DNA of 64,000 nt, from positions 1-64,000 of the forward strand of contig CAXXSM010000050.1 of the NCBI GenBank assembly GCA_963663405.2. Direction: 5' to 3'. Within the stretch, counting starts at the first letter, position 1. Each line of letters opens with the position of its first letter. The notes beneath the pieces are model-generated. The model searched no databases. It had not been told where the DNA came from and was given only the letters and a program-made list of their open reading frames with translations. This document shows, piece by piece, positions 25,597 to 42,375 of the stretch. The translations under genes and the position numbers were made by a program. This DNA comes from a bacterium (GTDB lineage Bacteria > Hinthialibacterota > Hinthialibacteria > Hinthialibacterales > Hinthialibacteraceae).

Positions 25597-28134
25597 ATGG
25601 TGAGAATAGGTATTGTTTTGTTAAGTGTAACGATGATCTGCTCCATTGTTTGGCCGGACGTAGTGATCAACGAGATTCATTACAATCCCCCTGACGAACA
25701 ATATACGTCAGGCACATTCCGGGAATTCATCGAATTGTACAATCCAGGTCCCAGTTCTATCGATATATCCGGTTATTACTTCGATAGAGGAATAACATTT
25801 GTGATTCCGGATGGTACGATCATGGAACCAAACTCTTATCTAATCTTGGCTCGTGATCCAGAAAATCGAATTTGGAGAAACACCCAATCCCTCGTCATGG
25901 GGCCGTATGAAGGACAATTATCCAACAGCGGAGAATGGTTATCAATACTGCGTCCCGATGGAACGATTGTAGAAGAATTTCGGTATAACGATAATTCACC
26001 CTGGAGCCGTTCCGCCGATGGTTATGGTTCCTCATTAGAGCGGATCGCCTGGGATTTACCAGCCGATGATTATCACAGCTGGCGGGCTTCCCTCTATGAT
26101 GAAGGCACCCCCGGTCAAGAAAATTCCGTTATTGGGACAAAGTCCAGGCCTGTTATTCTCTCACATGAAGTAATCCCCGCCCATCCAACATCTAATGATG
26201 AGGTCACGGTCCAACTCGGATTCGACGCCGCAAACATTATCCAATCAGTTACTTTACAATGGCTCAAAGCCGAACAAGGAGTCGAAGGTGGAAGTAATGA
26301 AGGGCCGGAAGTCTACGTCTCGTCCAGAGATAATTTTCAATATTGGAAAGGAACAGACGCGCCCTCGGAAGGTATCCTTTGGGCCGATCCAGATTTTGAC
26401 GATTCATCCTGGCGGCGGGGACGGGGCACATTTGGATACGGGGGGGGATGGTGGAGCCGGAATGGCACTGAACTGAATGATATGCGGAGTAATTATTCAA
26501 CCGTATACTTGCGCCGGAATTTCTCCATCCCTGACGCTGGGACAATGCAAAATGTTTTTATTCAAGTTCGTTACACGGGTGGTTTTATCTGTTATCTGAA
26601 TGGCGTCGAAGCCGCCCGCGCGAACGTCCCCGAATCATTTACCCACGAATCCCTTGCCACAGGCGCTCACGACATGAACGACTGGGAAATTTTCTCCATC
26701 CCAAACACCAACGGTTTATTGCAGGATGAAAATAATATTCTGGCGATCGTGGGTTTGAATTCCAGTTTGTCCGCCAATCAATTCTCATTGGGGATCAATC
26801 TCTATGAAGGAGAACGGATTATCACAGAGGTTGAACCGGATTACAACCAAACGTTAATGACCCGCGTTGCGGAGAGCGCCGATTCAGCTACATACGAAGC
26901 GAAAATCCACGCTATGCCATCTCAATCCCTAATTCGGTTCAACGCGAATCTGACATTGAATGACGATTCCTCCCTGCTGCTGCCTCATGTGAAGAATCTG
27001 CGGCCTTTTGAATCATATTTCGTTTATGATGGAGAAGTCGATACACTCTTATCGGTGATCTGGCCCTATTATGAAAGCACAGTCACATTAATGGAATTCG
27101 AACGCATTATGAGCGGCGCGGTTATCCTCCCGCCCGGCGAACGGAATCCCCTCGTTTTCGACGGCGCCTTGATCCGCACCTCCCGCAGTGGACAAAAAAT
27201 CAAGTTTCTTAAAGGTGAAGAATATCGGGGAGACCGGACTCTGAACATGCTCCCGGAACGCAATCAAACAGGCAATACATCCGGTCCAAGCACTCCCCAC
27301 CGGGAAGATCTCGGCTTCTGGTTTTTCCGTGAAATGGATATCCCTTCTCCCCGGACCGATTGGTTCCGAGTGATTGTCGATGGCGTTCACACCCAGCGGA
27401 TCATGATTGAGCAAGTCAACGAACGATTTCTAGAAATCAACGGCCGGAATCCTGACGCCGATCTATTTAAACGGAATTATGTGAGCCCCAACTGGGAACC
27501 TCATAACAATTTGGAGAACGGCACGGAAAGTATTGATACTCTGGAAACAGCGCTAAGGCGAGAACGCGATCAAACCAAACTGCATGAATTGCTGGAAACG
27601 AACCTGGTTGTAGATGAGTTCCTTCAGTACATCACCGCTTGTGTTCTACTGAGTAATTGGGATGGTTTTCATAACAACCATTGGATATATCTCGATCCAG
27701 ACACTCAGAAATGGGAGATGATCCCCTGGGATCTGGATAAAGCTTGGGGATATACCGATTCAAATCCCATGTTTACCGAAATGCCTATTGAATTCCCCCT
27801 GAATGGAAGAGCCGAACACGCGTCCCGTGAAACCGGACCGATTACCGGACCGCTATGTCAGGATGAAATATACTACCAGCAATACGTTGACCTATTGGGA
27901 TACGAATTCAACCACGCGTTCACCGAAGAACGAATGTTCGCCAAAATCTCGGAAACCGAAGAACTTCTTTTAGACGATCTTATTCTTCTTGAAGAGTATA
28001 CCGGCTCCACACGCGAACAACGCCGCGAACAGATTCTTGATTCGTATGAGACGCTTCGCACCTTTGTTCTATTAAGACGTGAGTTCCTAAGCGCTTACCT
28101 TCCCACGTCTGTGTCAAATTGGAGTGTGTATTAA
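25597..28134 (+). CDS. Secreted lamin-tail-domain plus CotH kinase family protein
   Basis: VVINEIHYNP..EFIELYN (LTD), ADGYGSSLER; CotH motifs NWDG..NN and IPWDLD; ends SVSNWSVY. Confidence 0.85.
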   Translation: MVRIGIVLLSVTMICSIVWPDVVINEIHYNPPDEQYTSGTFREFIELYNPGPSSIDISGYYFDRGITFVIPDGTIMEPNSYLILARDPENRIWRNTQSLVMGPYEGQLSNSGEWLSILRPDGTIVEEFRYNDNSPWSRSADGYGSSLERIAWDLPADDYHSWRASLYDEGTPGQENSVIGTKSRPVILSHEVIPAHPTSNDEVTVQLGFDAANIIQSVTLQWLKAEQGVEGGSNEGPEVYVSSRDNFQYWKGTDAPSEGILWADPDFDDSSWRRGRGTFGYGGGWWSRNGTELNDMRSNYSTVYLRRNFSIPDAGTMQNVFIQVRYTGGFICYLNGVEAARANVPESFTHESLATGAHDMNDWEIFSIPNTNGLLQDENNILAIVGLNSSLSANQFSLGINLYEGERIITEVEPDYNQTLMTRVAESADSATYEAKIHAMPSQSLIRFNANLTLNDDSSLLLPHVKNLRPFESYFVYDGEVDTLLSVIWPYYESTVTLMEFERIMSGAVILPPGERNPLVFDGALIRTSRSGQKIKFLKGEEYRGDRTLNMLPERNQTGNTSGPSTPHREDLGFWFFREMDIPSPRTDWFRVIVDGVHTQRIMIEQVNERFLEINGRNPDADLFKRNYVSPNWEPHNNLENGTESIDTLETALRRERDQTKLHELLETNLVVDEFLQYITACVLLSNWDGFHNNHWIYLDPDTQKWEMIPWDLDKAWGYTDSNPMFTEMPIEFPLNGRAEHASRETGPITGPLCQDEIYYQQYVDLLGYEFNHAFTEERMFAKISETEELLLDDLILLEEYTGSTREQRREQILDSYETLRTFVLLRREFLSAYLPTSVSNWSVY

Positions 28135-28176: not shown

Positions 28177-28729
28177 TCATATCGTAAACTCGATTGTATG
28201 CCGTTGATAATAGACACAGTCTATGCTAAACGCTTCTATTAAAGGCAGTTTTTTTTTGCTGGGATACGACAGCGCGAATAGGGCCTGCATGGGTGATCCA
28301 TATCTCGGCTCTTGAATGTGCTTTTCGTTCCTCCAAAAATTCGATCACTCGTTGGCGCATATCGATAAAACTTTCTCCGTTGGGTGGTCTTTCATGAATC
28401 CAGTCATCAAAGAATTGTTTCAATTCTTCCGGTTGCTTCGCTTTTACTTCATCCCACGTCATATTCTCCCAATCGCCGAATGATTGTTCCCGGATTTGCT
28501 CTGTTTGTAAAAGTTGAAGGTTGTATTGCTCCGCGAGAAATTCGGCCGCCATACTGCAGCGTTTCAAATCGCTTGTAACAATCAAAGAATTTTTTTTAAG
28601 AATATTTTTATCAATTAAATCTATAATCCCTTCAGGTGGATTGGATAAAGGGATATCGCTCCAACCATAAATGCGGTTCTCTGGATTATGCACGGAACCG
28701 TGACGGATTAGATCGATTTGTTTCATCAT
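28177..28729 (-). CDS. cobC: Alpha-ribazole phosphatase (histidine phosphatase), frameshift in A9 run near 3' end
   Basis: LIRHG, SDLKRC, E..FGDWE, PPNGES, THAGPIR; removing one base from the 28249-28257 run gives the tail LPLIEAFSIDCVYY...; cob operon context. Confidence 0.8.
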
Positions 28730-29478
28730 GCCGCCGTTGCGAAGACGTGGAGAATGGTTTCAGTTATATGGATGACACAACCAGCGCAATCCCCTGTTAT
28801 ATACCCAATCCTTTTAAGAAAATACATGCGCGCCAGAAAAGGGATACCAATCAATAAAAGAGGGATGAGAACTGGATTGGAGGGCGCCACAGTTAAAACA
28901 ATGATGGTTGTAAATAGCATTCCCAAAACACAGCATCCCCATTGATTGGAAAACGGAATTGTTCGACTTAAACTTTCCGGAGGAATTTCTTTCGTTTGAG
29001 TCAGTGTCAAAAAAAGAACGCCTGTCATTCGTGACACGGCGGCGTATGAGATGATGTTACGGATAGCCATGTTTGGATCAATTGATGTTAACGCGGCATA
29101 ACGGAGCACATACATCGAGATCATTGCGAATGAACCATAAGATCCAATGCGGCTATCACGCATGATTTCCAGAATTTTCTTTGAATCGTATCCTCCCATC
29201 CCATCCGCGGCATCGGCCAACGCGTCTTCATGGAACGCTCCCGTGATCCAGCCATAAGCCAGCAAGGTAAGCGCTATGGATACTGGATATGGAAAGAAAA
29301 TATTCGCAGTGTATACAACAAACGCAGCCAATCCTCCAAGGATTCCACCAACAAGGGGGAAAAATATTCCCATTCGATAGAGGGCTTTGTCTGTGACCGC
29401 CCATTGTGGGATTGGTATCCATGATAGAAAGGCAATCGTTGAACACAATAATTTGAGAGGGTACAATAGCGTAGTCAT
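28726..29478 (-). CDS. cobS: Cobalamin synthase (adenosylcobinamide-GDP ribazoletransferase)
   Basis: FPLVG, TGAFHEDALADAADG, IMRDSRIGSYG, GYITGD. Confidence 0.93.
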   Translation of the reverse strand: MTTLLYPLKLLCSTIAFLSWIPIPQWAVTDKALYRMGIFFPLVGGILGGLAAFVVYTANIFFPYPVSIALTLLAYGWITGAFHEDALADAADGMGGYDSKKILEIMRDSRIGSYGSFAMISMYVLRYAALTSIDPNMAIRNIISYAAVSRMTGVLFLTLTQTKEIPPESLSRTIPFSNQWGCCVLGMLFTTIIVLTVAPSNPVLIPLLLIGIPFLARMYFLKRIGYITGDCAGCVIHITETILHVFATAA

Positions 29479-30521
29479 GACGTTGTTTTCGAACTGACTC
29501 CAGCGGATTCGAAGGTTGCCATCTCGTTGTAAATAGTGGCGGCGGCGTCAATAATTGGCAGCGAAATCAACGCGCCGCTGGCTTCGCCTAAACGCATATT
29601 CAAATCGAGAATCGGTGTGAGACGCAGATGATTTAGTATCTGCCGATGTCCAGGTTCAACAGATACATGACCGGCGAGGAATCCCGTTCGCGCAACAGGA
29701 TCGGCGCTTGCCGCAATTAGAGCGGCGGTGGAAACGATAAAGCCATCCAGCAGAACGATTAAGTTATGTTTACCTGCTTCAATCATGCCCCCAACCATCG
29801 CGGCGATTTCGAATCCACCAAGGCAAGTCAAGATAGAATATGGATCGGTCAACTGATCAGCATGAGTTTGCATCGCCCGTTCAATCACAGAAATTTTATG
29901 TTGAAGACCGGCATTATCCAGCCCCGTTCCCCGGCCCGTGATTTCTAAAACGGAGCATTGAAGTATCGCCGCGCAAATGGCTGACGCGGATGTCGTGTTC
30001 CCGATTCCCATCTCTCCAAATATAATCAGTTTAGCGCTCTGGGCGGCCTCTTCCTGTACAATCTGTTTGCCAATTTCGATGGCTTGCTCCATTTCCGCTT
30101 TCGTCATGGCGGATTCTTTCATCATATTCCGGGTTCCCGCTCGAATCACATGACGCTCTACCCCTGCAAATGATTGATCGACGGGAAGTTTCACACCCAC
30201 ATCGATCACACGCAGCTTCGCTTGGTGAAGTTTTGATAATACACTGACCGCCGCGCCTCCGCTGGCCATGTTCTTAAGCATTTCACCCGTCACAGATTGA
30301 GGAAACGCGCTGATCGCTTCTTCGCATACACCGTGGTCTCCGGCGAAAACAAGCACGCTCCGTGGCTTCGTTTTTGGAGTATCCGTCTGTTGAATCTCAC
30401 ACAATATAGCTGCGATATCTTCCACACGGCCAAGGCTGCGTGGAGGTTTTGTCAATCGATCCAAATGTTCCCACGCACGATCGATGTAAGATATGTTTCG
30501 TTGATCCATCACTCTATGCAT
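29475..30521 (-). CDS. cobT: Nicotinate-nucleotide-dimethylbenzimidazole phosphoribosyltransferase
   Basis: LTKPPRSLGRVE, FAGDHGV, GEMGIGNTT, MRLGEASGA. Confidence 0.95.
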   Translation of the reverse strand: MHRVMDQRNISYIDRAWEHLDRLTKPPRSLGRVEDIAAILCEIQQTDTPKTKPRSVLVFAGDHGVCEEAISAFPQSVTGEMLKNMASGGAAVSVLSKLHQAKLRVIDVGVKLPVDQSFAGVERHVIRAGTRNMMKESAMTKAEMEQAIEIGKQIVQEEAAQSAKLIIFGEMGIGNTTSASAICAAILQCSVLEITGRGTGLDNAGLQHKISVIERAMQTHADQLTDPYSILTCLGGFEIAAMVGGMIEAGKHNLIVLLDGFIVSTAALIAASADPVARTGFLAGHVSVEPGHRQILNHLRLTPILDLNMRLGEASGALISLPIIDAAATIYNEMATFESAGVSSKTTS

Positions 30522-30530
30522 TCCTCAGAA

Positions 30531-31061
30531 TCATTCAGGTAAATGACCTTTGATCGCAGTAGGGATTCCAGCAACAAAAAGTAGAACATTGCCGCAGGCT
30601 TGAGCGAAGCGTTGGTTCACCAATCCGAGCAAATCCCTATACTGCCTTCCCGATTCATAGGCGGGATGCACTCCCATGCCCACCTCATTGGTTACGATTA
30701 TTACATCCTTAGAAATTGCTTTGATTCTTTCCACCATAGGTTCTACCCATTTCATGATAAGATCATCGTGGGATTTTGATTCTTCCATGATACGGGCTGT
30801 CCAAATAGTCAAGCAATCAATGACAATACAATCATATGGATCTCCCGCTTGTTCTAAGGCGTACAAGATATTTGTTCCCGCTTCAATTGTAGTCCAACCT
30901 TCACCACGTTCCTGTTGGTGTTTTTGAATACGCATCCGCATATCGGCGTCACATGGTTCGGCGGTTGCGATGTATAACTTACTTTTATAATGTTGCGCAT
31001 AGTTAACAGCCCATGAACTTTTTCCGCTTCTTACACCGCCGATGAGTAAAAAAGAAGCCAT
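30531..31061 (-). CDS. cobU: Adenosylcobinamide kinase/guanylyltransferase
   Basis: GGVRSGKS P-loop, YIATA, RI..HQ..R, IDCLT, VTNEVGMG; true start MASF at 31061. Confidence 0.93.
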   Translation of the reverse strand: MASFLLIGGVRSGKSSWAVNYAQHYKSKLYIATAEPCDADMRMRIQKHQQERGEGWTTIEAGTNILYALEQAGDPYDCIVIDCLTIWTARIMEESKSHDDLIMKWVEPMVERIKAISKDVIIVTNEVGMGVHPAYESGRQYRDLLGLVNQRFAQACGNVLLFVAGIPTAIKGHLPE

Positions 31062-31063
31062 GT

Positions 31064-32041
31064 TTACGCTCCCTTCCGGATGAATATCCATAAGAAAGTC
31101 AAACTGCCAATAAGCCCTGTAATCACGCCTAAAGGCAATTCGATGGGAGAAAGAATTGTTTTGGCCGCGAAATCGCAAATCAATACAAAGGCCGCCCCAC
31201 CCAGCATGCACATGGGAAAAAGGAGAGCGTGTTTGGGACCCAGAATATTTCTTAACACATGAGGGATGATAAGACCGACGAATCCCACTACGCCCATCGC
31301 CGCCACACAAGTTCCGGTGACCAGGCTCGACCAGAAAAAGATTTGACGTTTCAGAGACGATATATGGATTCCTAACGAAGCGGCTTTTTCTTCTCCCATG
31401 GATAAAAGATCAAGGGCGGAAGATTGACGTGTCAGAAAAAAGCAGCCAATGATGCAGAGCGACGCTGTAACCACTAACATATCGATTGGCGCAGAATTCA
31501 AATCGCCCAGCAACCACATCATTGCGCCATGCGCCCGGTTGCTTGGTGATAGAGCGACTAACAACATCAGAGCGGATTGAAAAAAATACCCCACCATAAC
31601 GCCACAGAGGATTAACGCCGTTCTAGAGAACAAGGTTCGCTGCATCAAAATAAACACAAGCAAAGTGACGGTAATGGCGCCAGCGAACGCAAAGGCGGAA
31701 ATTCCAATGCCAGAAGAAATCCCAATCACAATGGCGAAGACGGCGCCAAATCCGGCGCCGCTTGAAATACCAAGTGTGAAAGGTTCCGCCAATGGATTGC
31801 GGAAAAGGCCTTGCAGAGACAATCCACATACAGCCAGACTCGATCCAAGTATAATCCCAAACAGCGCGCGGGGCAGCCGCAATTTCCACAATACCCGTCC
31901 TGCGGATGTGGATGGATTCATCAATCCCTCATACAGTTCTTTGAACGAGAAATCCGCCGGGCCGGATAGGACATGAACGATCAAGCCAGTGAGAAAAATT
32001 AAAGTAAGTAATAAAACAAAGGCAGTAGTTTTTGATATCAT
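31064..32041 (-). CDS. btuC: FecCD/BtuC-type ABC permease (cobalamin)
   Basis: LRLPR, LQGLFRNPLAEP, GEEKAASLG, GFVGLIIPH; cob operon context. Confidence 0.88.
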   Translation of the reverse strand: MISKTTAFVLLLTLIFLTGLIVHVLSGPADFSFKELYEGLMNPSTSAGRVLWKLRLPRALFGIILGSSLAVCGLSLQGLFRNPLAEPFTLGISSGAGFGAVFAIVIGISSGIGISAFAFAGAITVTLLVFILMQRTLFSRTALILCGVMVGYFFQSALMLLVALSPSNRAHGAMMWLLGDLNSAPIDMLVVTASLCIIGCFFLTRQSSALDLLSMGEEKAASLGIHISSLKRQIFFWSSLVTGTCVAAMGVVGFVGLIIPHVLRNILGPKHALLFPMCMLGGAAFVLICDFAAKTILSPIELPLGVITGLIGSLTFLWIFIRKGA

Positions 32042-32919
32042 TCCGGTTTGGCCGCTTCATTTCTTAACTGATTTTCACTTTGTTTTATCTTAATTGTTGG
32101 ATGAAGGATGGATAGAAAGTATTCTGTTGATTTCAAGAATGATGAAAGGCTGGGTTGAGAAAATTCCGGCGCGTTGGCTTGTTGAATGATCGCATCGTCA
32201 AAATCAGGGAACTCCCGGTACCGTTTCACGCGTGTGTCATCGATTAGGGAATGCGTTAATATGAGAATGACTTCCGGTCGCATCGCGATGACTGACTCGA
32301 TGGAGATTTGAGGATAGGCGGCCGGCGCGTCCGCAAAGACATTGATCCCCCCCGCCCTTTCGATCACATGATGAATGAAACCTCTCTTAGAAACGGTCAT
32401 CAATGGTTTGGGCCAGATTTCAACAAATACCCGCTTTCGTTTTACCTGTTTAAGCGCTGTGTCAATGACGTTTAAGCGTTGATTCAACAGTTGGACATAC
32501 GATTTCGCAAATTCTTCCCGATAGGTCACTTCGGCGATCTTCATGAAATCCTGCGTGATATCCTCCAAGTTTTGTGAGGGACCCAATCGGAGGACGTTGA
32601 GTCCCAGCGTTTCCAGCCGGTCAAGGATATCGGGCCGGTTCGATTCCACATCCCCCAAGACCAACGTGGGATTCAAAGTCGCGATCAACTCAAGATTGGG
32701 GTTTGATAATGTTCCAATTACGACAGCGTCCGTAGCGTCAGCTGGCTGTATACAGAATTTCGTAATCCCAACAAGGTATTCACTGAGGCCCAAATCACTG
32801 GCTTTTGTCGTGTTGGATGGAGCCAGTGAGACAATCCGATGCGTCTTTTCAGCGGCGCCCGCATATAATGAAAACAAGACTATAAAAAAAGCAGCCGTGT
32901 ACAACAATCGGTTTCGCAT
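32038..32919 (-). CDS. btuF: Cobalamin-binding periplasmic protein
   Basis: RIVSLAPSNT, LVGIT.FC..P, AGGINVF, YPQISIESV. Confidence 0.85.
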   Translation of the reverse strand: MRNRLLYTAAFFIVLFSLYAGAAEKTHRIVSLAPSNTTKASDLGLSEYLVGITKFCIQPADATDAVVIGTLSNPNLELIATLNPTLVLGDVESNRPDILDRLETLGLNVLRLGPSQNLEDITQDFMKIAEVTYREEFAKSYVQLLNQRLNVIDTALKQVKRKRVFVEIWPKPLMTVSKRGFIHHVIERAGGINVFADAPAAYPQISIESVIAMRPEVILILTHSLIDDTRVKRYREFPDFDDAIIQQANAPEFSQPSLSSFLKSTEYFLSILHPTIKIKQSENQLRNEAAKPE

Positions 32920-32932
32920 AGATTTTTTTCCT

Positions 32933-34450
32933 TTACCGCGCTAGTTTTTTCGCGTGATCAATCGCATGGAGGATTGGATCGAGATTGAGATGACACGCCA
33001 GCGTTGAGGCGATCGTTTCGTATGGATCGTGTTGACGCCGATCGATAACGCTATTGGCGCCCAGTTGTTGGCAAAGAGTATCCCGAATCCCCTCATTATT
33101 AAAAAAACCGTGAAGGTATGTGCCCCATACCCGGCCATTCGTCGCTATGGCGCCATCCTTCCGGCTGCAGGGACTTGATTGAACGGTGTGGATGGATACG
33201 AGAGGCTGGTTTGTATCTTCACCGGACGAACGGCCGCAGTGAATTTCATATCCGGTGATCTCAATCGAAGTATCCATCAATGTGCCTTGAACGTTTTCCG
33301 TGATTTTGAATGGGACCAATTCGGTATCGACGTAAAGCAGAGAAAATCCGTCTATACTTCCCCGCCGGGTTTCTATCCCATGTGGATCGGTAATCCTGCG
33401 GCCCAGCATTTGATAGCCACCACAGACACCAATGATGAATCCATTTTTGTCATAATGATTCTTCAAAAAAGATTCAAAACCACATTGTTTTAATTCAACT
33501 AGATCATCAATGACATTTTTTGTACCAGGAAGAATAAGAAGATTATAGTTATCTTCCTCGCGCGGCGCGTACAATGTTTCAATATAAAAGCGGGGATCAG
33601 CGATAAGCGGTTCGATATCATCGCTATTCGAAATATGGGGGGGCATGATGACGCCAACCCGAACCGCGTGATCATTTTGAACCATATTGAATTTTCTCGC
33701 CTCAAATGAAGCGTTGTCTTCATCGGGCATATGGTGATTCGGGATATACGGCACAACGCCTAGAACGGGTTTTCCCGAACGATGCTCCAGAATTCTCACG
33801 CCCTCATCAAAAATCTCTTTGGAACCGCGAAATTTATTGACCACAAGGCCAATGATACGCTCTCTCTCGGTTTCTTCCAACAAATCGAGGGTTCCCAAGA
33901 TAGAGGCGAAGATTCCACCACGTTCGATATCGGATATTAAAATAACACGCGCGTCTGTATACTCCGCAATCCAAAGATTGGCTAGATCACGATGGCGGAG
34001 ATTGAGTTCCGCGCATCCCCCGGCGCCTTCGATCAGTATCACATCATATTTCGACGCGAGCCGGTTGTAACTTTCAGCAATGCGCCGTTTGAATTCATTG
34101 ACGCGATGGATACCAAAATCGGAGCCGATTGTTCCATCGACTTTTCCTTGAAGCACAACTTGTGACTGCATATCGCCCGTTGGTTTTAACAAAAGGGGAT
34201 TGAGGTCATTGCACAGAGGAACCTTGCACGCTTCGGCCTGGCACGCCTGCGCCCGGCCGATTTCACCACCCTCGATGGTCACGGCTGAATTGTTTGACAT
34301 ATTCTGCGCCTTGAACGGCGTGACCGACATTCCACGATTGTAAAGCAACCGTCCCAATCCCGCTGTGAACAAACTTTTCCCTGTATTGGAGGCGGTTCCC
34401 CAAATGCAGATCGCCTGCGCTGTATGGGGTGGATTATCCAGCGAGTTCAA
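32933..34450 (-). CDS. cobQ: Cobyric acid synthase
   Basis: GTASNTGKS, PFKAQNMSNN, GEIGRAQ, EGAG, GVCGGYQMLG, GYEIH, GTYLHG. Confidence 0.95.
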   Translation of the reverse strand: MNSLDNPPHTAQAICIWGTASNTGKSLFTAGLGRLLYNRGMSVTPFKAQNMSNNSAVTIEGGEIGRAQACQAEACKVPLCNDLNPLLLKPTGDMQSQVVLQGKVDGTIGSDFGIHRVNEFKRRIAESYNRLASKYDVILIEGAGGCAELNLRHRDLANLWIAEYTDARVILISDIERGGIFASILGTLDLLEETERERIIGLVVNKFRGSKEIFDEGVRILEHRSGKPVLGVVPYIPNHHMPDEDNASFEARKFNMVQNDHAVRVGVIMPPHISNSDDIEPLIADPRFYIETLYAPREEDNYNLLILPGTKNVIDDLVELKQCGFESFLKNHYDKNGFIIGVCGGYQMLGRRITDPHGIETRRGSIDGFSLLYVDTELVPFKITENVQGTLMDTSIEITGYEIHCGRSSGEDTNQPLVSIHTVQSSPCSRKDGAIATNGRVWGTYLHGFFNNEGIRDTLCQQLGANSVIDRRQHDPYETIASTLACHLNLDPILHAIDHAKKLAR

Positions 34451-35025
34451 AACTCAATTCCCCTTTGCGCTTTAATACCGGAATGATATGGATGTTTGAT
34501 TTCGTTGATTTCTGAAACCAGGTCCGCGGCGTCAATCAACTCTTTGGGCGCCCCCCGTCCCGTACAAATGACATGCATCCAAGACGGCCGTTGTTTAAGC
34601 GTTTCTATTACTGTATCAATAGGAAGATAGTGATACGAAAAAAGATAGTTGATTTCATCCAGGATCACTAAATCATGCTCTGCGTTTTCAATCGTTTCTT
34701 TGGCAAAATCCCAAATTTTCTCCGTGGTTTTAATATCTTGTTCTGGATTTTTTGAATTCCATGTAAATCCATCTCCCATGGCGTACAGTTCAATATCCAA
34801 GGGCAAACAATCGCTGATTCGTTTTTCGCCTGTGATCCATTTTCCTTTCATAAATTGTATGATGCGCACTTTCCAATTCCACCCTAACGCGCGATAAGCG
34901 GCGCCTAACGAAGCGGATGTCTTTCCTTTGCCATTGCCTGTATTCACGATGAGCAAACCCTCACGCCGTTCGCGCGGTGGTTGAGGCGCTTGCTTCTTTA
35001 AATCTTCGAGTGTTCGCGCTTGCAC
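34447..35025 (-). CDS. cobO: Cob(I)yrinic acid a,c-diamide adenosyltransferase
   Basis: NTGNGKGKT, QFMKG, LDEI, TGR, KHPY..GIKAQRGIEF; likely GTG start at 35025 after AAGGA. Confidence 0.93.
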   Translation of the reverse strand: MQARTLEDLKKQAPQPPRERREGLLIVNTGNGKGKTSASLGAAYRALGWNWKVRIIQFMKGKWITGEKRISDCLPLDIELYAMGDGFTWNSKNPEQDIKTTEKIWDFAKETIENAEHDLVILDEINYLFSYHYLPIDTVIETLKQRPSWMHVICTGRGAPKELIDAADLVSEINEIKHPYHSGIKAQRGIEF

Positions 35026-35029
35026 TATT

Positions 35030-35236
35030 CTAAGATCCTTCAATTTTGAATCGCTGTATCCATTCGCCACCGGAATCAAACATCATTGATCCCCAAGTGT
35101 TCGGAGTCAGCCACACATCATATTCTGAAAATGTCAGTTGTTCTGGAGCCTCGAATATTGGAACATCGGCCTGCGCGTCATTAGTAAGCGCAATGATAAA
35201 TACGATATGTACAAACCAGAAATTTTTCATAGTCAT
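35030..35236 (-). pseudogene. Truncated secreted protein, apparent paralogue of the 38418-39707 propeller
   Basis: RBS, signal peptide MTMKNFWF...AQA, then SEYDVWLTPNTWGSMMFDSGG aligning with SESAIEFSRNTSGSIGVDSMG; stops after 68 aa. Confidence 0.55.
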
Positions 35237-35246
35237 AATTCCCCCT

Positions 35247-35960
35247 TTAATTCCGGACCAGTTGCACGGCGCGTTCACGAATGGTTCCGTAGATCGATAA
35301 TTCATATTCGCCATACCATGTCAAACGGGGATTGTCTTCGTCTTGTTTGATGCGAAAGGGGAAGCGAATCTCTCGATCGGGATAGTACTGCCCAATATCA
35401 ACGCTCATGCAACGAACCAACCATGCGTCACTGTCCCAATCTTTTTCGATGTTGTGATCACCGCCTTCATATCCGCCAACGTCCTCCGCCGCCGCATTGT
35501 AGGCGTATCGCAGAAAACGCCATTGAGGCACTTCTTTCCCGGCGAATTCTGTATCGCCGCAGCTGGGCCAAGCTTCAATGATTTGTTGGTTTTGCCGTTT
35601 CAAGGCAGGACAATACAGGCTGGCTTCCTGGCAATACTGATATTTCACCAACAAAAGGGAAATCCCACTCCAATACCCATTGGCCGAGGGTCCGCATCCC
35701 CATTCTGTATGATCAGGATGAGGAACCACATCCGCAGTTCCATCCGCCGGTGGAAATTGGTTATAATCCAACCGGTATGCGTTTAACGCAGTGTGAATCG
35801 TTCTTAAATTTTGTTGACAGGCGGCCCGGACGGTCCGTTCAATGGCTTGAAGGTAATTGGATGCGACGATCGACGCGAGGATACCAATAATCGCCACAAC
35901 AATCAGTAGTTCGATTAATGTAAAACCATCATCACGATCTTTCGGGGATAAAGAGTACAA
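35247..35960 (-). CDS. Prepilin-type N-terminal cleavage/methylation domain protein (type IV pilin/pseudopilin-like), first gene under a B12 riboswitch
   Basis: G|FTLIELLIVVAIIGILA class III signal with E5; amphipathic helix ..NLRTIHTALNAYRLDY..FP; LYCPA; AAGGAG RBS. Confidence 0.9.
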   Translation of the reverse strand: MYSLSPKDRDDGFTLIELLIVVAIIGILASIVASNYLQAIERTVRAACQQNLRTIHTALNAYRLDYNQFPPADGTADVVPHPDHTEWGCGPSANGYWSGISLLLVKYQYCQEASLYCPALKRQNQQIIEAWPSCGDTEFAGKEVPQWRFLRYAYNAAAEDVGGYEGGDHNIEKDWDSDAWLVRCMSVDIGQYYPDREIRFPFRIKQDEDNPRLTWYGEYELSIYGTIRERAVQLVRN

Positions 35961-36096
35961 TCCACGATACTCCTTTAGATAAGTACAACCGAAAGCAGGA
36001 AGAATTATTCCACCGGAAAGACAGTTATATAAACCTACTTAAAAGCGGGATCATTCAACTCCAGCCGGCTTCTTTCCGGTCGGCTTTCGGTCTTTC

Positions 36097-36250
36097 AGTA
36101 AAAGGCAGGTATCCTGGCTTCCGGGCCTGAATGTCACCTAATCCCTTGCCTTCTCATTCGTATATGCGAACAATGGCGTGTAAGGTTTCGTTCCCGGTTA
36201 CAGTGGCGGGTCCGCGCCGGACTTTCACCGGCTTCCCTGTTACTTTTACT
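36097..36250 (-). ncRNA. Cobalamin riboswitch 1 (apparently lacking P2)
   Basis: Minus strand AGGGAAGCCGGTGAAAGTCCGGCGCGGACCCGCCACTGTAACCGGG...GAGAAGG...B12 box AGCCAGGATACCTGCC; P1 AGTAAAAG/CTTTTACT. Confidence 0.95.
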
Positions 36251-36260
36251 ATACTTTACA

Positions 36261-36289
36261 ATCATACTAGAAGAGATTCTTTCTGTCAA
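36261..36289 (-). promoter_or_regulatory. Sigma70 promoter for the riboswitch 1 operon
   Basis: TTGACA-17nt-TATGAT just upstream of the riboswitch. Confidence 0.8.
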
Positions 36290-36355
36290 GAAATGAAGAG
36301 ATAGCTTAATAAGATTCTCGATTCAATTCCATTTTTCGTATCCATCAATTGTCTG

Positions 36356-37318
36356 TTATATTGAATCAAATCCAACAACGATCAACCAATTCATAATGTA
36401 AGTTAATGCAATGAATAAAATCGATGTAAGCAACAAAGTATTCCATGATTTGAGAATATGAGACGGTTGCGCCGAATCTCCCTCTACATTGAGAATCGGC
36501 TTTTGACTTACCAGGCCTTGGTACACATTTCTTCCACCCAAGCGGACACCTAATGCGCCCGCGTACGCCGCTTCCGCATGACCCGCATTAGGACTGGTAT
36601 GTTTCAACCGGTCTCGAAATCCAATTCGAAATGAGTTTCCTGCATTTTGTCCCACAAGAATGGCTGCCAAGGGAATCAATACGATCGATAACCGAGCTGG
36701 AATCCAATTAACTAGATCATCCAATTTCGCGGAGGCCCATCCAAAATCCATGTATCGTTCATTTTTATATCCCACCATGGAATCCAGTGTATTGACCGCC
36801 TTATACGCTAATGCCAAAGGAGCGGCGCCAATCGCGGCAAAAAATAGCGGAGAAAGAACGCCATCGACCGTGCCCTCCGCAACGGTCTCCACAGCGGCGC
36901 GGGAGATTTCCGTTTCCTCCAAACGATCTGTATCCCGGCCGACTATCATCGCTAACAAATGACGGGCTTTTTCCATATGCCCATCGTGCAACGCGTGATA
37001 CACTTTTCGTGTCTCGCGAATCAATCCCTGCGCGGAAACGCATTGATAAACCAGCCAAATTTCTATCAGCCATCCAGCGGTTACATTCAATTGATACAGT
37101 GTTTTTAATAGAAAGAACGAGATAAGCCATACACATACGGGAAATCCAACCGCAAGAACAATCCCAGCCCATGTTAGAGAATACTGTCTCGATCGAACAT
37201 GTTTTTCATAGATTACGATACACTGCCCCATCCACCGGACCGGATGAGGAAGCCAATGGGGATCTCCCAAAATTAAGTCCAAAAGAAACGCAATGGGAAT
37301 GACAGAATTTTCTACCAT
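36356..37318 (-). CDS. cbiB: Adenosylcobinamide-phosphate synthase
   Basis: GDP.WLPHPV, IVGRDT, RAAVETVAE, YKAVNTLDSMVGY, SPNAG. Confidence 0.93.
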   Translation of the reverse strand: MVENSVIPIAFLLDLILGDPHWLPHPVRWMGQCIVIYEKHVRSRQYSLTWAGIVLAVGFPVCVWLISFFLLKTLYQLNVTAGWLIEIWLVYQCVSAQGLIRETRKVYHALHDGHMEKARHLLAMIVGRDTDRLEETEISRAAVETVAEGTVDGVLSPLFFAAIGAAPLALAYKAVNTLDSMVGYKNERYMDFGWASAKLDDLVNWIPARLSIVLIPLAAILVGQNAGNSFRIGFRDRLKHTSPNAGHAEAAYAGALGVRLGGRNVYQGLVSQKPILNVEGDSAQPSHILKSWNTLLLTSILFIALTYIMNWLIVVGFDSI

Positions 37319-37321
37319 ATA

Positions 37322-38404
37322 TTAACTGTTACATAATTGTATAACCGCTTCTATAAACCGCTGGTTCTCCGCCGGTGTTCTCGCGCCCACGCGAAAATAC
37401 GTTTGATCCAATCCTGAAAAATCATCACAACAACGGATCATAATTCCTTGTTGCCCGGATGAGACGTAAAACGCTTTCGCTATTCTTACATCCGCAATCC
37501 GAAAGAGAAAATAGCTGGTAGAAGAGGGGGTCACATCAATAGCAGAAAACTGTCTTAATGTTTCCATGATTCGCTGGGTTTCTTTTAACCACGCGATTTT
37601 ACGCTGATTATAATACTCTATATTCGTTACTACCCACTCACCAGCGGATTGCGCAAAAGAACTTACCGACCACGGTGGAATAAACCGCGCCATCCGGCGC
37701 GCGGTTTCTGGATGGGCGATCGCGTATCCAACGCGCAGGCCCGCCAGCCCAAAATACTTTGTCAGCGAACGCAATACAACTAGATTCTTTTGATCCGATA
37801 CCCATTGGACAACGGTACGATCCGGAACGAAATCAATAAACGCTTCATCAACAATCAATAGACTATCATTTTGATTGACCAATTCGATTAATTTCTGCAG
37901 TATTTCATTAGGGATCGCTGCGCCTGTTGGATTGTTTGGGTGACATATAAACAGGATTTGGTTCTTTTGTATTAACTTTTCCAAAGATGTCAAATCAATT
38001 TCATACTTATTTGAATGAAAACAATGGATAGATGTATGCGATTTTTGATAGAATTCAGCCGCTCGCCGGTACTCGTTAAATGTAGGTTCAAACGTTATCA
38101 CGCTTTGATAGTGTGGAGAAGAGCATAGCGCATAAATCAGTTGTATTGAACCATTGGAAGGAATGACGCATTCTGACGGGATCCCATGATGGGTGGCGGC
38201 AGCGTTTTGAAAACGCTCCGCGTGGATATCCGGATAACTGGATATATCATCCAATTCCGCAACAAGACGTATTCGCAATTCATCGGGAATCTCAAAAGGC
38301 CATGTATTGACACTAAGATCGAGAATCGCGTTGACATCATGTCCATACTGCCGTGAGAAAGCAAGACGATCTCCACCGTGTTTGTAGTGGTTCATAAGAA
38401 TCAA
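37322..38404 (-). CDS. cobD: L-threonine-O-3-phosphate decarboxylase
   Basis: HGG, LDLSVN, YPD, PNNPTG, VDEAFIDF, RSLTKYFGLAGLRVGY (PLP lysine); next to cbiB. Confidence 0.9.
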   Translation of the reverse strand: MILMNHYKHGGDRLAFSRQYGHDVNAILDLSVNTWPFEIPDELRIRLVAELDDISSYPDIHAERFQNAAATHHGIPSECVIPSNGSIQLIYALCSSPHYQSVITFEPTFNEYRRAAEFYQKSHTSIHCFHSNKYEIDLTSLEKLIQKNQILFICHPNNPTGAAIPNEILQKLIELVNQNDSLLIVDEAFIDFVPDRTVVQWVSDQKNLVVLRSLTKYFGLAGLRVGYAIAHPETARRMARFIPPWSVSSFAQSAGEWVVTNIEYYNQRKIAWLKETQRIMETLRQFSAIDVTPSSTSYFLFRIADVRIAKAFYVSSGQQGIMIRCCDDFSGLDQTYFRVGARTPAENQRFIEAVIQLCNS

Positions 38405-38417
38405 TGTTTAAGAATTG

Positions 38418-39707
38418 TTAGTAAAGAAGCCATGGTGTGACATCCGCTTCCTCCGTTTCACGTAAGACAATAGAATACTCACCATCCCATCCATGTTCGA
38501 TCCAAGCGGCAACGGTTTTTCCAGAACCGGGATGCGACGATATTGCAGGTGTTTTTGCGTCTCGATCGATTTGGCTAAGAATGGTTCGATTATTGATGAC
38601 CATTGTTAAGGGATTCACTTGAGCCAAAACAATTTGATTAAGGCCACCCAAATCTTCTTGCCACACAATAAGCAATTCAGTTGGCGATCGAAACGCCGCG
38701 CAGGGTTGGGAAGCGTCCAGCGTCCCATCGTTCACAATAACCGGGCCCTGCCAATCGCCTCCAAAAGATTTGTAATGAAGATTAACCTGATAGAAACCAT
38801 CTACATATTCAGTAGACACAAGGGCTAGATTGCCTTCCGAATCAGCAACTAAGCGGGGTGGATCGTTAAAACGCCCTCCTTTGGGCGCGATTGTTTTTAT
38901 TGAGGATAAGACTCTATCCGAATTGACAGATACGCCTTTGAGTTCATACGCTCCCTGCCATCCTCTCAAGAATCCCCATATAACATAGATCGAACCATCG
39001 GGCAGAGCGGCAAGATCGGGAGCCCAATTGGATGTGTAATCATCGGGATTTTGCTCTACAGACGTGATACGAAACGATTCGATCCCTTCCTGAATTGGAA
39101 AATCTCCATTGCTATCAGAACTAATCAGATAAATATCGGCGTTGTTTCCATTGAGAGAAAAATCATACCATGCGATGTGCAATTGATTTTCGATTCCGGC
39201 GGAGATTTGAGGGACGTATCCGTTATCTCCCTGATGACCGGCGTTCGTTGTCGTCAACCGGATATCCATATCCGAAAAGGAATGATTTACTGTTTTTTTG
39301 TCATAGTAGATTTCAACATTATCCATGTAATTCCCCGCCACCGAGGTGTGCCGGTAATCATGCCACACGACATGGATGGTATCTTCAGCGTCAATGACGA
39401 GAGAAGGGTGTCTTCCCCCACCCATATCACCACTGTCAACACGGACGGGGGATGATACAGAATTTTCCTCAATCATTTGATAAAGGATTTGATTGGCCGG
39501 TGGTTTTGACACTTCATCAGGAATCCCATACACGATATGAATCCGTCCCATCGAATCGACGCCAATCGATCCGCTCGTATTTCTTGAGAACTCAATAGCG
39601 GATTCACTCGTATAAAGAACGATTTCTTCCTTAAATTCCTGCGCCCACGTTGTGTAACCCATCAGCGCAGGCAAAAGGATGAAAATAGTACGTAGAATGA
39701 CTATCAT
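38418..39707 (-). CDS. Secreted beta-propeller-like protein with about 7 repeats, B12-riboswitch controlled
   Basis: Signal peptide; repeats ending IHIVY, IHVVWHD, LHIAWYD, IYVIWG, LALVSTE, LLIVWQE, VAAWIE; ends ADVTPWLLY. Confidence 0.75.
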   Translation of the reverse strand: MIVILRTIFILLPALMGYTTWAQEFKEEIVLYTSESAIEFSRNTSGSIGVDSMGRIHIVYGIPDEVSKPPANQILYQMIEENSVSSPVRVDSGDMGGGRHPSLVIDAEDTIHVVWHDYRHTSVAGNYMDNVEIYYDKKTVNHSFSDMDIRLTTTNAGHQGDNGYVPQISAGIENQLHIAWYDFSLNGNNADIYLISSDSNGDFPIQEGIESFRITSVEQNPDDYTSNWAPDLAALPDGSIYVIWGFLRGWQGAYELKGVSVNSDRVLSSIKTIAPKGGRFNDPPRLVADSEGNLALVSTEYVDGFYQVNLHYKSFGGDWQGPVIVNDGTLDASQPCAAFRSPTELLIVWQEDLGGLNQIVLAQVNPLTMVINNRTILSQIDRDAKTPAISSHPGSGKTVAAWIEHGWDGEYSIVLRETEEADVTPWLLY

Positions 39708-39711
39708 GCGA

Positions 39712-39884
39712 TTATCTCATACACTCCCAATCGGGAACATTGGATGTCTGTCCCAAAATATCTTGGCGGGAGATTGGCGGTTGCGCCGATCCCCAAACAG
39801 CATAGAAATATCCGTGAACATCGTTATCATACACAACGGAAATAGAACAAACAGCCCAAACACACTTAACCATACTCGTTTCAC
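39712..39884 (-). pseudogene. Internally deleted secreted-protein relic (signal peptide joined out of frame to a C-terminus)
   Basis: AAGGAG plus GTG start MKRVWLSVFGLFVLFPLC; another frame reads YDNDVHGYFYAVWGSAQPPISRQDILGQTSNVPDWECMR*. Confidence 0.5.
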
Positions 39885-39950
39885 AATCATTCTCCTTAAT
39901 GAAAAAGTGTATACAGGAAAAAGAGAGAAGAGATTCAATAGGCAGAAACA

Positions 39951-39987
39951 GAAAAGAAAAATCCCAGCCACCGAGGTGAACTGGGAT
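39951..39987 (-). terminator. Intrinsic terminator in the riboswitch 2 expression platform
   Basis: Hairpin ATCCCAGTTCACC-TC-GGTGGCTGGGAT followed by TTTTCTTTT. Confidence 0.75.
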
Positions 39988-40041
39988 CGTATGTTTCTAC
40001 GAAACAAGCTACCCTCTCAATTCCCGAAGAGGCGCTATATC

Positions 40042-40208
40042 TCAATGAGGCAGGTATCCTGGCTCCCGGGCGTTGCCATCCTACTCCCTCACCTTCTCAT
40101 CCGTATGGACAATGGTCACGAGGTTTCGTTCCCGGTTACAGTGGCGGAACCGCGCCGGATTCTCACCGGCTTCCCTTTTCAACCGCTTTTCAGCGGTCAC
40201 CCCACTAA
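40042..40208 (-). ncRNA. Cobalamin riboswitch 2
   Basis: GGT-P2(GACCGC..GCGGTT)-GAAAAGGGAAGCCGGTGAGAATCCGGCGCGGTTCCGCCACTGTAACCGGG...AGCCAGGATACCTGCC. Confidence 0.95.
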
Positions 40209-40224
40209 GTTATGTCTAAAGAAA

Positions 40225-40253
40225 ATAATAGAAGATTCTCCACTTGCGATCAA
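40225..40253 (-). promoter_or_regulatory. Putative sigma70 promoter for the riboswitch 2 operon
   Basis: TTGATC-17nt-TATTAT. Confidence 0.6.
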
Positions 40254-42372: not shown

Positions 42373-42375
42373 ACC

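Follow-up and report, generated by a model that had tools for sequence, protein, structure and literature searches.

The 64-kb stretch of bacterial DNA analyzed here (the window) lies on contig C50 of an assembly of 8.44 Mb in 170 contigs that is 82% complete (genome G000). Two cobalamin (vitamin B12) riboswitches head two operons of corrinoid salvage and import genes in it, and the gene closest to one of them encodes P0001, a protein with the predicted fold of a type IV pilin. The riboswitches were the only two Rfam matches across the window. Both belong to RF00174, both lie on the minus strand, and both exceeded the gathering threshold of 31.5 bits over the full aptamer. The gene order behind riboswitch 1 is prepilin, a short open reading frame (ORF) with a signal peptide, cobO, cobQ, btuF, btuC, cobU, cobT, cobS, and cobC. 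Behind riboswitch 2 follow the ORF 39717-40007, a 429-residue propeller, a CobD-type aminotransferase, and CbiB. A first-pass annotation of the sequence had described two riboswitch-headed salvage operons; the Rfam scores and the Pfam assignments of the cob and btu genes agree with it. The features closest to the riboswitches are as follows.

40032-40219, minus strand: cobalamin riboswitch 2 (aptamer); RF00174, 120.9 bits, E 8.4e-30, model positions 1-189
39715-40007, minus strand: pseudogene remnant of rs3prot, including a 96-residue ORF (39717-40007) without a family; found by tblastn with the 278-residue orthologues of G004 and G012
38418-39707, minus strand: secreted seven-bladed beta-propeller (propeller 1, P0002), 429 residues; predicted from the model and structural matches
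36087-36273, minus strand: cobalamin riboswitch 1 (aptamer); RF00174, 101.1 bits, E 4e-24, model positions 1-189
35247-35960, minus strand: type IV pilin-fold protein P0001, 237 residues, 12-residue leader, G|FTLIE (the bar marks the cleavage site); PF07963, TIGR02532
35030-35236, minus strand: N-terminal stub of the propeller 2 gene; signal peptide, tblastn match to propeller 2 of G004 and G012

The prepilin character of P0001, recognized already in the first-pass annotation, was confirmed by scores above the cut-offs for PF07963 (N_methyl; 35 versus 21.2 bits) and TIGR02532 (36.5 versus 16.3 bits). The class III signal is complete and includes Glu5 (...KDRDDG|FTLIELLIVVAIIG). Across 70 homologues F13, T14, L15, I16, and E17 are close to invariant. 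A model based on these 70 homologues (pLDDT 93.2) predicted a helix at residues 15-66 and a C-terminal sheet. In an exhaustive structural alignment against 48,161 chains the top 20 matches were all type IV pilins or pseudopilins (Z 3.2-6.1), with 9iuf_A at Z 6.1 (root mean square deviation (rmsd) 4.2, 135 residues aligned); the structural matches include the type IVb pilin of enterotoxigenic Escherichia coli, Thermus thermophilus PilA4, EpsG, PulG, and ComP. A Foldseek search of the PDB returned weak pilin matches, none at E <= 0.001. By these models P0001 is a pilin fold carrying a head of its own.

The head domain stands apart from GspG and DUF1559. The best NCBIfam match pointed in the direction of GspG (TIGR01710, residues 12-84) and reached 53.3 bits, below the equivalog cut-off of 88.85. 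With the DUF1559 proteins of Planctomycetes (PF07596, named SBP_bac_10 in Pfam) P0001 shares a prepilin-type N-terminus followed by a globular domain, in genomes rich in such genes. However, membership in DUF1559, a family that the first-pass annotation had mentioned as proposed uptake components, was rejected because the score of 20.2 bits is below the cut-off of 23.3 and is confined to residues 45-80, matching profile positions 9-44 of 268. Searched against 1.84 billion representative proteins, a head-only profile retrieved 27 at E <= 0.001, so the head forms a separate narrow family, unlike the broad DUF1559. Homologues at 39-43% identity carry the source name "Candidatus Sumerlaeia," and others "Candidatus Omnitrophota/Omnitrophica bacterium."

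To place the gene in its wider context, 41 genomes (35 of the class, including G000, and 6 outgroups) were searched with P0001 and RF00174, and the window proteins were compared with flanks of about 9 kb to the left and right of each full-length P0001 match. Thirty-four full-length homologues (E <= 2.4e-74) were found within G000-G025. A riboswitch immediately precedes 16 of them; in another seven it is located 1.9-3.5 kb upstream, and rs3prot and/or a propeller gene fills the gap (in L045 additionally a weak btuF-like match of 28%). Three are located at a contig end, and eight belong to a separate paralogue encoded in an HmuS-containing module. Riboswitch linkage was thus found in 23 of 23 assessable non-paralogue copies; nine direct riboswitch-pilin cases had already emerged when 19 loci were scanned with Rfam, flanks of 1.5 kb included. 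The more distant members G023 and G027-G034 showed the same linkage for the best pilin match in 9/9 genomes (seven direct, two at 1.3-1.4 kb). G026 had no pilin orthologue matching past the N-terminal helix.

Metagenomes were scanned with a head-only alignment (A5, 30 sequences), the full-length alignment having drawn unrelated pilins via the N-terminal FTLIELL. RF00174 was found on the same strand upstream of 22 of the 39 pilin loci obtained, directly in 12 and at a distance of 0.9-2.2 kb in 10. Another 12 have less than 700 nt of upstream sequence, which is too short to judge, and five (L169, L170, L171, L174, and L175) are riboswitch-free over at least 1.0 kb. These counts are not independent, because several loci come from the same organism, and the proteins of two loci recur in identical form in the genome set. 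The association of P0001 homologues with B12 riboswitches that the first-pass annotation had led us to look for was therefore present in both sets.

The gene order around the pilin varies considerably. In family f5 it forms a monocistronic riboswitch-pilin unit followed by unrelated genes (GH95, transposase). The order is riboswitch-propeller-pilin-btuD-btuF-btuC in G028 and riboswitch-pilin-btuC in genus g21 (L040), where a matching metagenome locus (L160) continues from pilin-btuC to an ABC ATPase gene (btuD). Elsewhere rs3prot, propeller, and pilin stand together behind the riboswitch. The link between pilin and riboswitch persists through this rearrangement, and the linkage of the riboswitch-controlled pilin to propeller, btuFCD, and cob genes is conserved. 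The seven-bladed propeller is riboswitch-linked across the class as well. In genomes with a solitary pilin gene, the second riboswitch heads the propeller: in G029 and G034 the propeller lies downstream of it, and in G030 and G031 an unknown protein of 386-404 residues comes first. The corresponding arrangements elsewhere are riboswitch-rs3prot-propeller-btuF (G024), riboswitch-rs3prot-propeller (G019), and riboswitch-rs3prot (G014). In the metagenome clade L176-L184 and L197 the riboswitch is followed by two unknown proteins of 370-407 and 256-262 residues and then the pilin. Neither has a Pfam match, and hhalign against the propeller and rs3prot profiles showed no kinship (probability <1%).

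In G000 the third and last riboswitch of the assembly (C53:70063-70263) heads P0005 (C53:68705-69907; L007 12706-13908, minus strand), a 400-residue intact paralogue of rs3prot. P0005 consists of one N-terminal conserved domain and two extra C-terminal repeats of about 110 residues, which are missing from the 278-residue rs3prot orthologues and are found in L047. All three riboswitches of the genome therefore head members of the pilin/propeller/rs3prot gene set.

We then compared, by eye, the table of receptor Plug domains with the riboswitch table of the 41 genomes. No riboswitch of the 35 class genomes has a Plug match within 46 kb, the nearest pair on one contig being 46 kb apart (G010:C6), and 11 of these genomes are free of Plug matches altogether, including G006, G019, and G029, which are 96-98% complete. 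The outgroups that contain both features served as an internal positive control for the method: riboswitch and Plug gene are 0.1-3.2 kb apart in 4/4.

G035: riboswitch 3861-4055, Plug 3463-3726
G036: riboswitch 48208, Plug 47004
G037: riboswitch 100508, Plug 99884
G038: riboswitch 148273, Plug 151692

A riboswitch-regulated btuB elsewhere in the genome, which would have explained B12 uptake, was found neither behind the three riboswitches of G000 (82% complete) nor in the 34 class relatives. Riboswitch-linked TonB-dependent receptors are lacking in the class genomes examined. The first-pass annotation had also noted that btuB, tonB, and btuD are missing from the window. This held for the region from 25.6 to 44.4 kb, whose 18 scanned ORFs included no ABC ATPase, TonB, or TonB-dependent receptor, and a genome-wide TonB_dep_Rec search gave no match on the window contig; btuD was not sought in every ORF of the window. 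No btuD follows btuC in the window or in the two closest relatives (G004 and G012), and in other relatives it adjoins the pilin gene. As a separate observation, the contig with the nearest same-contig pair carries six tandem TonB-dependent receptor genes (G010:C6:1102272-1113169), 46 kb from the nearest riboswitch.

The salvage and import genes of the two operons were assigned as follows.

37322-38404, minus strand: CobD-type aminotransferase-fold enzyme (class I/II); PF00155, E 1e-47, the name CobD being taken from context
36356-37318, minus strand: CbiB (adenosylcobinamide-phosphate synthase); PF03186, E 7e-105
34447-35079, minus strand: CobO (corrinoid adenosyltransferase); PF02572, E 1e-63
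32933-34450, minus strand: CobQ/CbiP (cobyric acid synthase); PF07685 and PF01656
32038-32919, minus strand: BtuF-like periplasmic binding protein; PF01497 (Peripla_BP_2), E 6e-21
31064-32041, minus strand: BtuC-like permease; PF01032 (FecCD), E 7e-82
30531-31310 (longest ORF), minus strand: CobU; PF02283, E 5e-54; NF004469, 172.9 bits versus a cut-off of 161
29475-30521, minus strand: CobT; PF02277, E 9e-125
28726-29478, minus strand: CobS; PF02654, E 4e-42
28226-28729, minus strand: CobC-type phosphatase; PF00300, E 5e-32

The importer is represented by a BtuF-like and a BtuC-like protein, which score above the Pfam cut-offs and below those of the NCBIfam equivalogs (BtuF NF002894, the best NCBIfam match, 111 versus 234 bits; BtuC NF003001, 211.5 versus 334 bits), with no ATPase in the operon. 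The longest ORF of cobU has about 250 nt in common with btuC. Because the CobU domain begins only at residue 88 of this ORF, the true start is probably later, near 31050. In five genomes checked exactly one Peripla_BP_2 gene is present, in G024 and G022 behind the second riboswitch. With a single BtuF-type gene behind the other riboswitch the pilin does not replace BtuF, and the idea that it does so in pilin-btuC-btuD operons was dropped.

The genome carries only the late salvage steps of cobalamin synthesis. A single TP_methylase match and 12 B12-binding domains above the cut-off mark it as a heavy corrinoid user in which no de novo ring synthesis was found. Most of the B12-binding domains sit in frames of about 500 residues, fitting B12-dependent radical SAM enzymes, and one of the 12 lies in the window itself (2261-2590, minus strand). 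Machinery of the type that could handle a pilin is encoded elsewhere in the genome, with nine secretin matches (eight above the cut-off), seven ATPases of the type II secretion system (T2SS)/type IV pilus (T4P) family (T2SSE; two in open frames of 365-378 residues), and two prepilin peptidases (Peptidase_A24). Of the genome-wide machinery looked for after the first-pass annotation, secretins, T2SS/T4P ATPases, and prepilin peptidases were thus present; for TonB the outcome was two unlinked TonB-dependent receptors and no TonB_C domain in the G000 assembly. About 160 (162) first-look candidates in G000 match the pilin N-terminus, a very large prepilin-headed complement.

The propeller of the second operon, noted in the first-pass annotation as a seven-repeat protein, was modelled as a seven-bladed propeller (P0002, pLDDT 88.4). 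P0002 has no Pfam match of its own, and its orthologues carry PF15892 (BNR_4); one orthologue, P0139, is 55% identical and bears the source name "Candidatus Hinthialibacter sp." Together with the source names of the other homologues this makes a Hinthialibacterota-like lineage probable. The N-terminus resembles a signal peptide with no Cys within the first 30 residues. The best structural match was CylK (Z 35.1, rmsd 2.9, 337 residues aligned), and other matches were GH145 hydrolases and the PLL lectins of Photorhabdus (Z 28-29). Modelling of the head of the pilin (A5) in complex with propeller 1 (A4, residues 24-429) gave a score of 0.00 (mark 0.32) with controls that did not fold, a result that speaks neither for nor against binding.

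The short ORFs behind the two riboswitches were explained by comparison with the two closest relatives (G012:C117 and G004:C85), whose DNA is 68-72% identical to the window and colinear with it. Both have the order riboswitch, rs3prot, propeller 1, cobD, cbiB, riboswitch, pilin, propeller 2, cobO, cobQ, btuF, btuC, cobU, and by blastn the window differs from this colinearity by the deletion of propeller 2. In these relatives rs3prot is a secreted protein of 278 residues with two tandem domains of about 125 residues, and propeller 2 has 442-443 residues and is 25-27% identical to propeller 1. Positions 35075-35230 of the window correspond to residues 1-53/68 of propeller 2 in G004/G012 (40-51% identity, E ~5e-11). 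For rs3prot, tblastn matched 39822-39881 to residues 2-21 (60% identity) and 39715-39849 to residues 234-278 (73% identity, E 1e-20) in a different frame; the remnant is short of about 212 codons, and the relatives keep the intact gene at the same place. As these matches to the intact genes of relatives are partial, and for rs3prot also split between two frames, the stub and the relic, which the first-pass annotation had correctly listed as secreted-protein fragments, are decayed genes. Pfam and PDB sequence searches with rs3prot were empty. A likeness to the transcobalamin-type DUF4430 domains, noticed by eye, is tentative: no DUF4430 or SCO2322-like Pfam match was obtained for any of 11 rs3prot members at E <= 1, and the Atlas gave leads only (feature scores 0.82-0.89, TM 0.37-0.47 by query).

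The arrangement was compared with described uptake systems. To our knowledge, B12 crosses the outer membrane of Gram-negative bacteria through the TonB-dependent receptor BtuB in all routes described so far, in some of them with the help of surface lipoproteins, and no pilin-fold protein is known to form the core of an uptake system for a vitamin or a tetrapyrrole. The closest parallel is BtuB-BtuG of Bacteroides, which likewise occupies the riboswitch-proximal slot, has a seven-bladed propeller partner, and acts upstream of BtuFCD. In the locus described here, however, no TonB-dependent barrel is linked, the propeller lacks the lipoprotein Cys, and the central protein has a pilin fold. BtuG2 is a seven-bladed propeller (PDB 3DSM), and its homologues are reported from Bacteroidetes exclusively (PMC6143338). 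Judged by its model, P0002 shares the seven-bladed fold class with BtuG, and the likeness is one of fold class only. Many seven-bladed propellers of the PDB matched P0002 with Z 26-35; BtuG was not among the matches listed (at most 50), which does not argue for different folds. A search for sequence homology with an 18-sequence propeller profile against PDB chains found only the xylanase 7erl_A (E 0.0056) at E <= 1. The parts of the literature available gave no relevant account joining cobalamin, B12, or its riboswitch with a pilin, prepilin, pseudopilin, or DUF1559, and the available text of the paper describing Hinthialibacterota mentions a cobalamin ABC transporter along with Tad pili and flagella but no pilin-B12 system (PMC9324843).

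In a tree from which L161-L163, L165, L177, and L179 were left out as duplicates, the eight riboswitch-less homologues (pilinB) group together in a single clade (bootstrap 100, SH-aLRT 100), which arises from within the order's riboswitch-linked copies. In 8/8 loci pilinB is followed by propeller 2, a 182-residue protein of the MotA/ExbB family, and a 1329-residue CobN homologue whose best solved relative is the heme dechelatase HmuS (9d26, E 2e-137). In the one locus scanned for it (L050), a DUF2149 protein is encoded between the latter two genes. The hmu operon of Bacteroidota, according to the available parts of two reports, encodes the hemophore HmuY, the TonB-dependent receptor HmuR, the CobN-like HmuS, HmuT, the MotA/TolQ/ExbB-like HmuU, and HmuV (PMC12094164, PMC12583661). 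The paralogue module resembles it in its HmuS-like CobN homologue, its MotA/ExbB-like counterpart of HmuU, and its small DUF2149 protein, whereas in 8/8 loci the pilin-propeller pair stands in place of HmuR and HmuY. Neither HmuR nor HmuY was found in the eight loci by blastp with the window and L053 proteins, and no HmuT counterpart was seen, which leaves the module short of a full Hmu set. With HmuR and HmuY missing and the pilin-propeller pair in first position, the same replacement appears twice, for two tetrapyrroles, and this suggests that the pair also serves heme. In G000 the module (pilinB, propeller 2, MotA/ExbB-like, CobN/HmuS-like) is located at C149:74714-81238 (L053 9000-15539). 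The CobN/HmuS-like gene, a single ORF of 1329 residues in relatives, is divided there into two overlapping ORFs of 831 and 407 residues, perhaps by a frameshift or through an error of assembly.

We read the window as the B12 starvation regulon of a corrinoid salvager in which the pilin, one or two propellers, and the tandem-domain protein fill the slot of BtuB or BtuB-BtuG, and we assign this reading a probability of roughly 0.6. The pilin-fold protein and its secreted partners are predicted to act in corrinoid capture or outer membrane passage, ahead of BtuF. That the pilin functions in some way in corrinoid acquisition at the cell envelope is likely. The specific route by retractile fibre is put forward tentatively, with odds of about one in three. 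This route, for which we infer that the pilin binds corrinoid and assembles into filaments, that these retract, and that the cargo passes through a secretin, would run as follows. When adenosylcobalamin is scarce, the riboswitches would stay open and the pilin would be made. Prepilin peptidase would cleave it at G|F, and a secretin-containing machine of the T2SS/T4P type encoded in the genome would build a short pilin fibre. The head domain, alone or with the propeller, would hold the corrinoid at or beyond the outer membrane, and shortening of the fibre would bring it through the secretin into the periplasm. BtuF and BtuC would then take over the corrinoid, and CobO, CobQ, CobD, CbiB, CobU, CobT, CobS, and CobC would complete the cofactor.

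Such a route would resemble that of the competence type IV pili and pseudopili (ComP, ComGC), in which a G|FxxxE pilin would bind external cargo and retract through a secretin; ComP is among the structural matches of P0001 (Z 4.5 and 2.5). Unlike in competence, the cargo would be a 1.3-kDa vitamin instead of DNA, and the gene is controlled by a riboswitch and shares its locus with ABC importer and salvage genes rather than pilus genes. An extension to a general TonB-independent tetrapyrrole importer, in which pilin-propeller pairs would carry corrinoids in the riboswitch version and heme in a duplicated version within the HmuS-type module, is doubtful. In it a cargo-binding pilin would be built into a fibre by a T2SS/T4P-type machine and drawn back through a secretin, as in DNA uptake. 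The proposal of the first-pass annotation, a B12-specific pilus subunit working with surface propellers, was partly supported. The riboswitch linkage of the homologues, the lack of a riboswitch-linked btuB, the machinery, and the decayed genes agree with it, and DUF1559 membership does not.

Several observations weigh against our reading of the window. In P0001 no ligand pocket of a known type was recognized, and its structural matches are pilins only, at modest Z values of 3.2-6.1. The riboswitch-linked loci examined carry no pilus assembly genes, and the only nearby T2SSE gene is at L170, a riboswitch-free locus. The clade L169-L171 has no riboswitch within 1.5-4.3 kb, nor do L174 and L175 within 1.0-1.5 kb. 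The genomes are kin, so part of the association reflects shared ancestry, and each of them is an incomplete metagenome-assembled genome (MAG). Two accessory genes have decayed in the window and are therefore dispensable or redundant there. The N-termini of the propeller and rs3prot are of a plain Sec type lacking a lipobox Cys, which is compatible with a place in the periplasm or at the surface. Plug-domain receptors are present in 24 of the 35 class genomes, and G000 has two good TonB-dependent receptor genes (C18 and C106), neither near a riboswitch. The C106 receptor lies in a YfiR-like/histidine kinase cluster and is weakly BtuB-like in its plug region (TIGR01779, 92.5 bits versus a cut-off of 599.7); the other is a 995-residue receptor of the TonB-Xanth-Caul type. 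With such receptors at hand in G000 and most of the class, B12 uptake may be receptor-borne without riboswitch control. The absences of TonB_C and btuD count for little because the genome is 82% complete.

A first alternative keeps the pilin at the inner membrane. Its N-terminus would be a membrane anchor only, and the head, perhaps with the propeller, would serve as a periplasmic high-affinity corrinoid trap or hand-off for BtuF/BtuCD, with no fibre and no role at the outer membrane, which B12 would cross by another route. The adjacency of the pilin gene to btuC-btuD or btuD-btuF-btuC in several lineages fits this, as do accessory proteins with Sec signals only, operons without assembly genes, and the weak N-terminal match to DUF1559, which Pfam names SBP_bac_10. 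However, the five genomes checked each have one BtuF-type protein already, which in G024 and G022 is encoded behind a riboswitch. The pilin also retains Glu5 and a complete class III signal, features tied to type IV filament assembly, and the passage across the outer membrane would stay unexplained in the 11 Plug-free genomes. We consider this alternative unlikely, at about one chance in five.

Less probable still is a T2SS pseudopilin or adaptor that would export the propeller and tandem-domain proteins as corrinophores and would itself carry no B12. The T2SS pseudopilins GspG/EpsG/PulG share the N-terminal signal and fold with P0001 (EpsG Z 5.5, PulG Z 4.5), GspG is the best NCBIfam match (53.3 bits, below the cut-off), the pilin is kept beside Sec-secreted proteins, and the genome is rich in secretins. 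In contrast to GspG, P0001 has a head of about 180 residues with a large insertion, its gene lies outside a gsp operon, and its GspG score stays under the cut-off. The family f5 pilin is monocistronic and far from a propeller, and a secreted binder needs a return route, of which none is linked. We also know of no T2SS with cargo-specific pseudopilins encoded beside the cargo. A pilin that is produced during B12 starvation but has a task unrelated to transport, such as attachment to B12 producers or detritus with a merely regulatory link to uptake, would suit the monocistronic f5 unit with its unrelated neighbours (GH95, transposase) and the common role of type IV pili in adhesion, but is highly improbable given the repeated co-operonic position with btuCD/btuF and cob genes, the paralogue in a heme-processing module, and a narrow head family tied to tetrapyrrole loci.

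A B12-riboswitch-controlled pilin-fold protein without a riboswitch-linked receptor is thus a feature of a whole class of uncultured bacteria, and it offers a testable function for one of the many prepilin-headed proteins, whose very large families are unexplained. Should the pilin carry corrinoids or hand them over, vitamin uptake would gain a new principle and the type IV filament superfamily a new job. The general tetrapyrrole importer outlined above would, if real, be the first case of a small nutrient being taken up by a pilus, and would give a first clue to the function of the huge prepilin-headed families in these and PVC-type bacteria.

The control regions and the surroundings of the operons were also inspected. 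In the folded leader of riboswitch 1 the Shine-Dalgarno sequence AAAGGAG and the TTG start are enclosed in a 9-bp hairpin (z -2.92). A terminator-like hairpin at 39975-39963, 57 nt 3' of riboswitch 2, matches the consensus and is of a kind that occurs no more often than in shuffled sequence; motif counts of the whole promoter and terminator scan equalled those in shuffles, and the scan gives no evidence. Near a pilin homologue, L166 (3198-3244, minus strand) contains a match to the Acido-Lenti-1 small RNA at 37.1 versus a gathering score of 37. Divergent from riboswitch 2, the plus strand encodes a GAF and HD-GYP-type protein followed by a CHASE2-adenylate/guanylate cyclase (41011-44355), and at the other end an 845-residue protein with lamin-tail and CotH kinase domains (25597-28134, plus strand) adjoins the cob operon.

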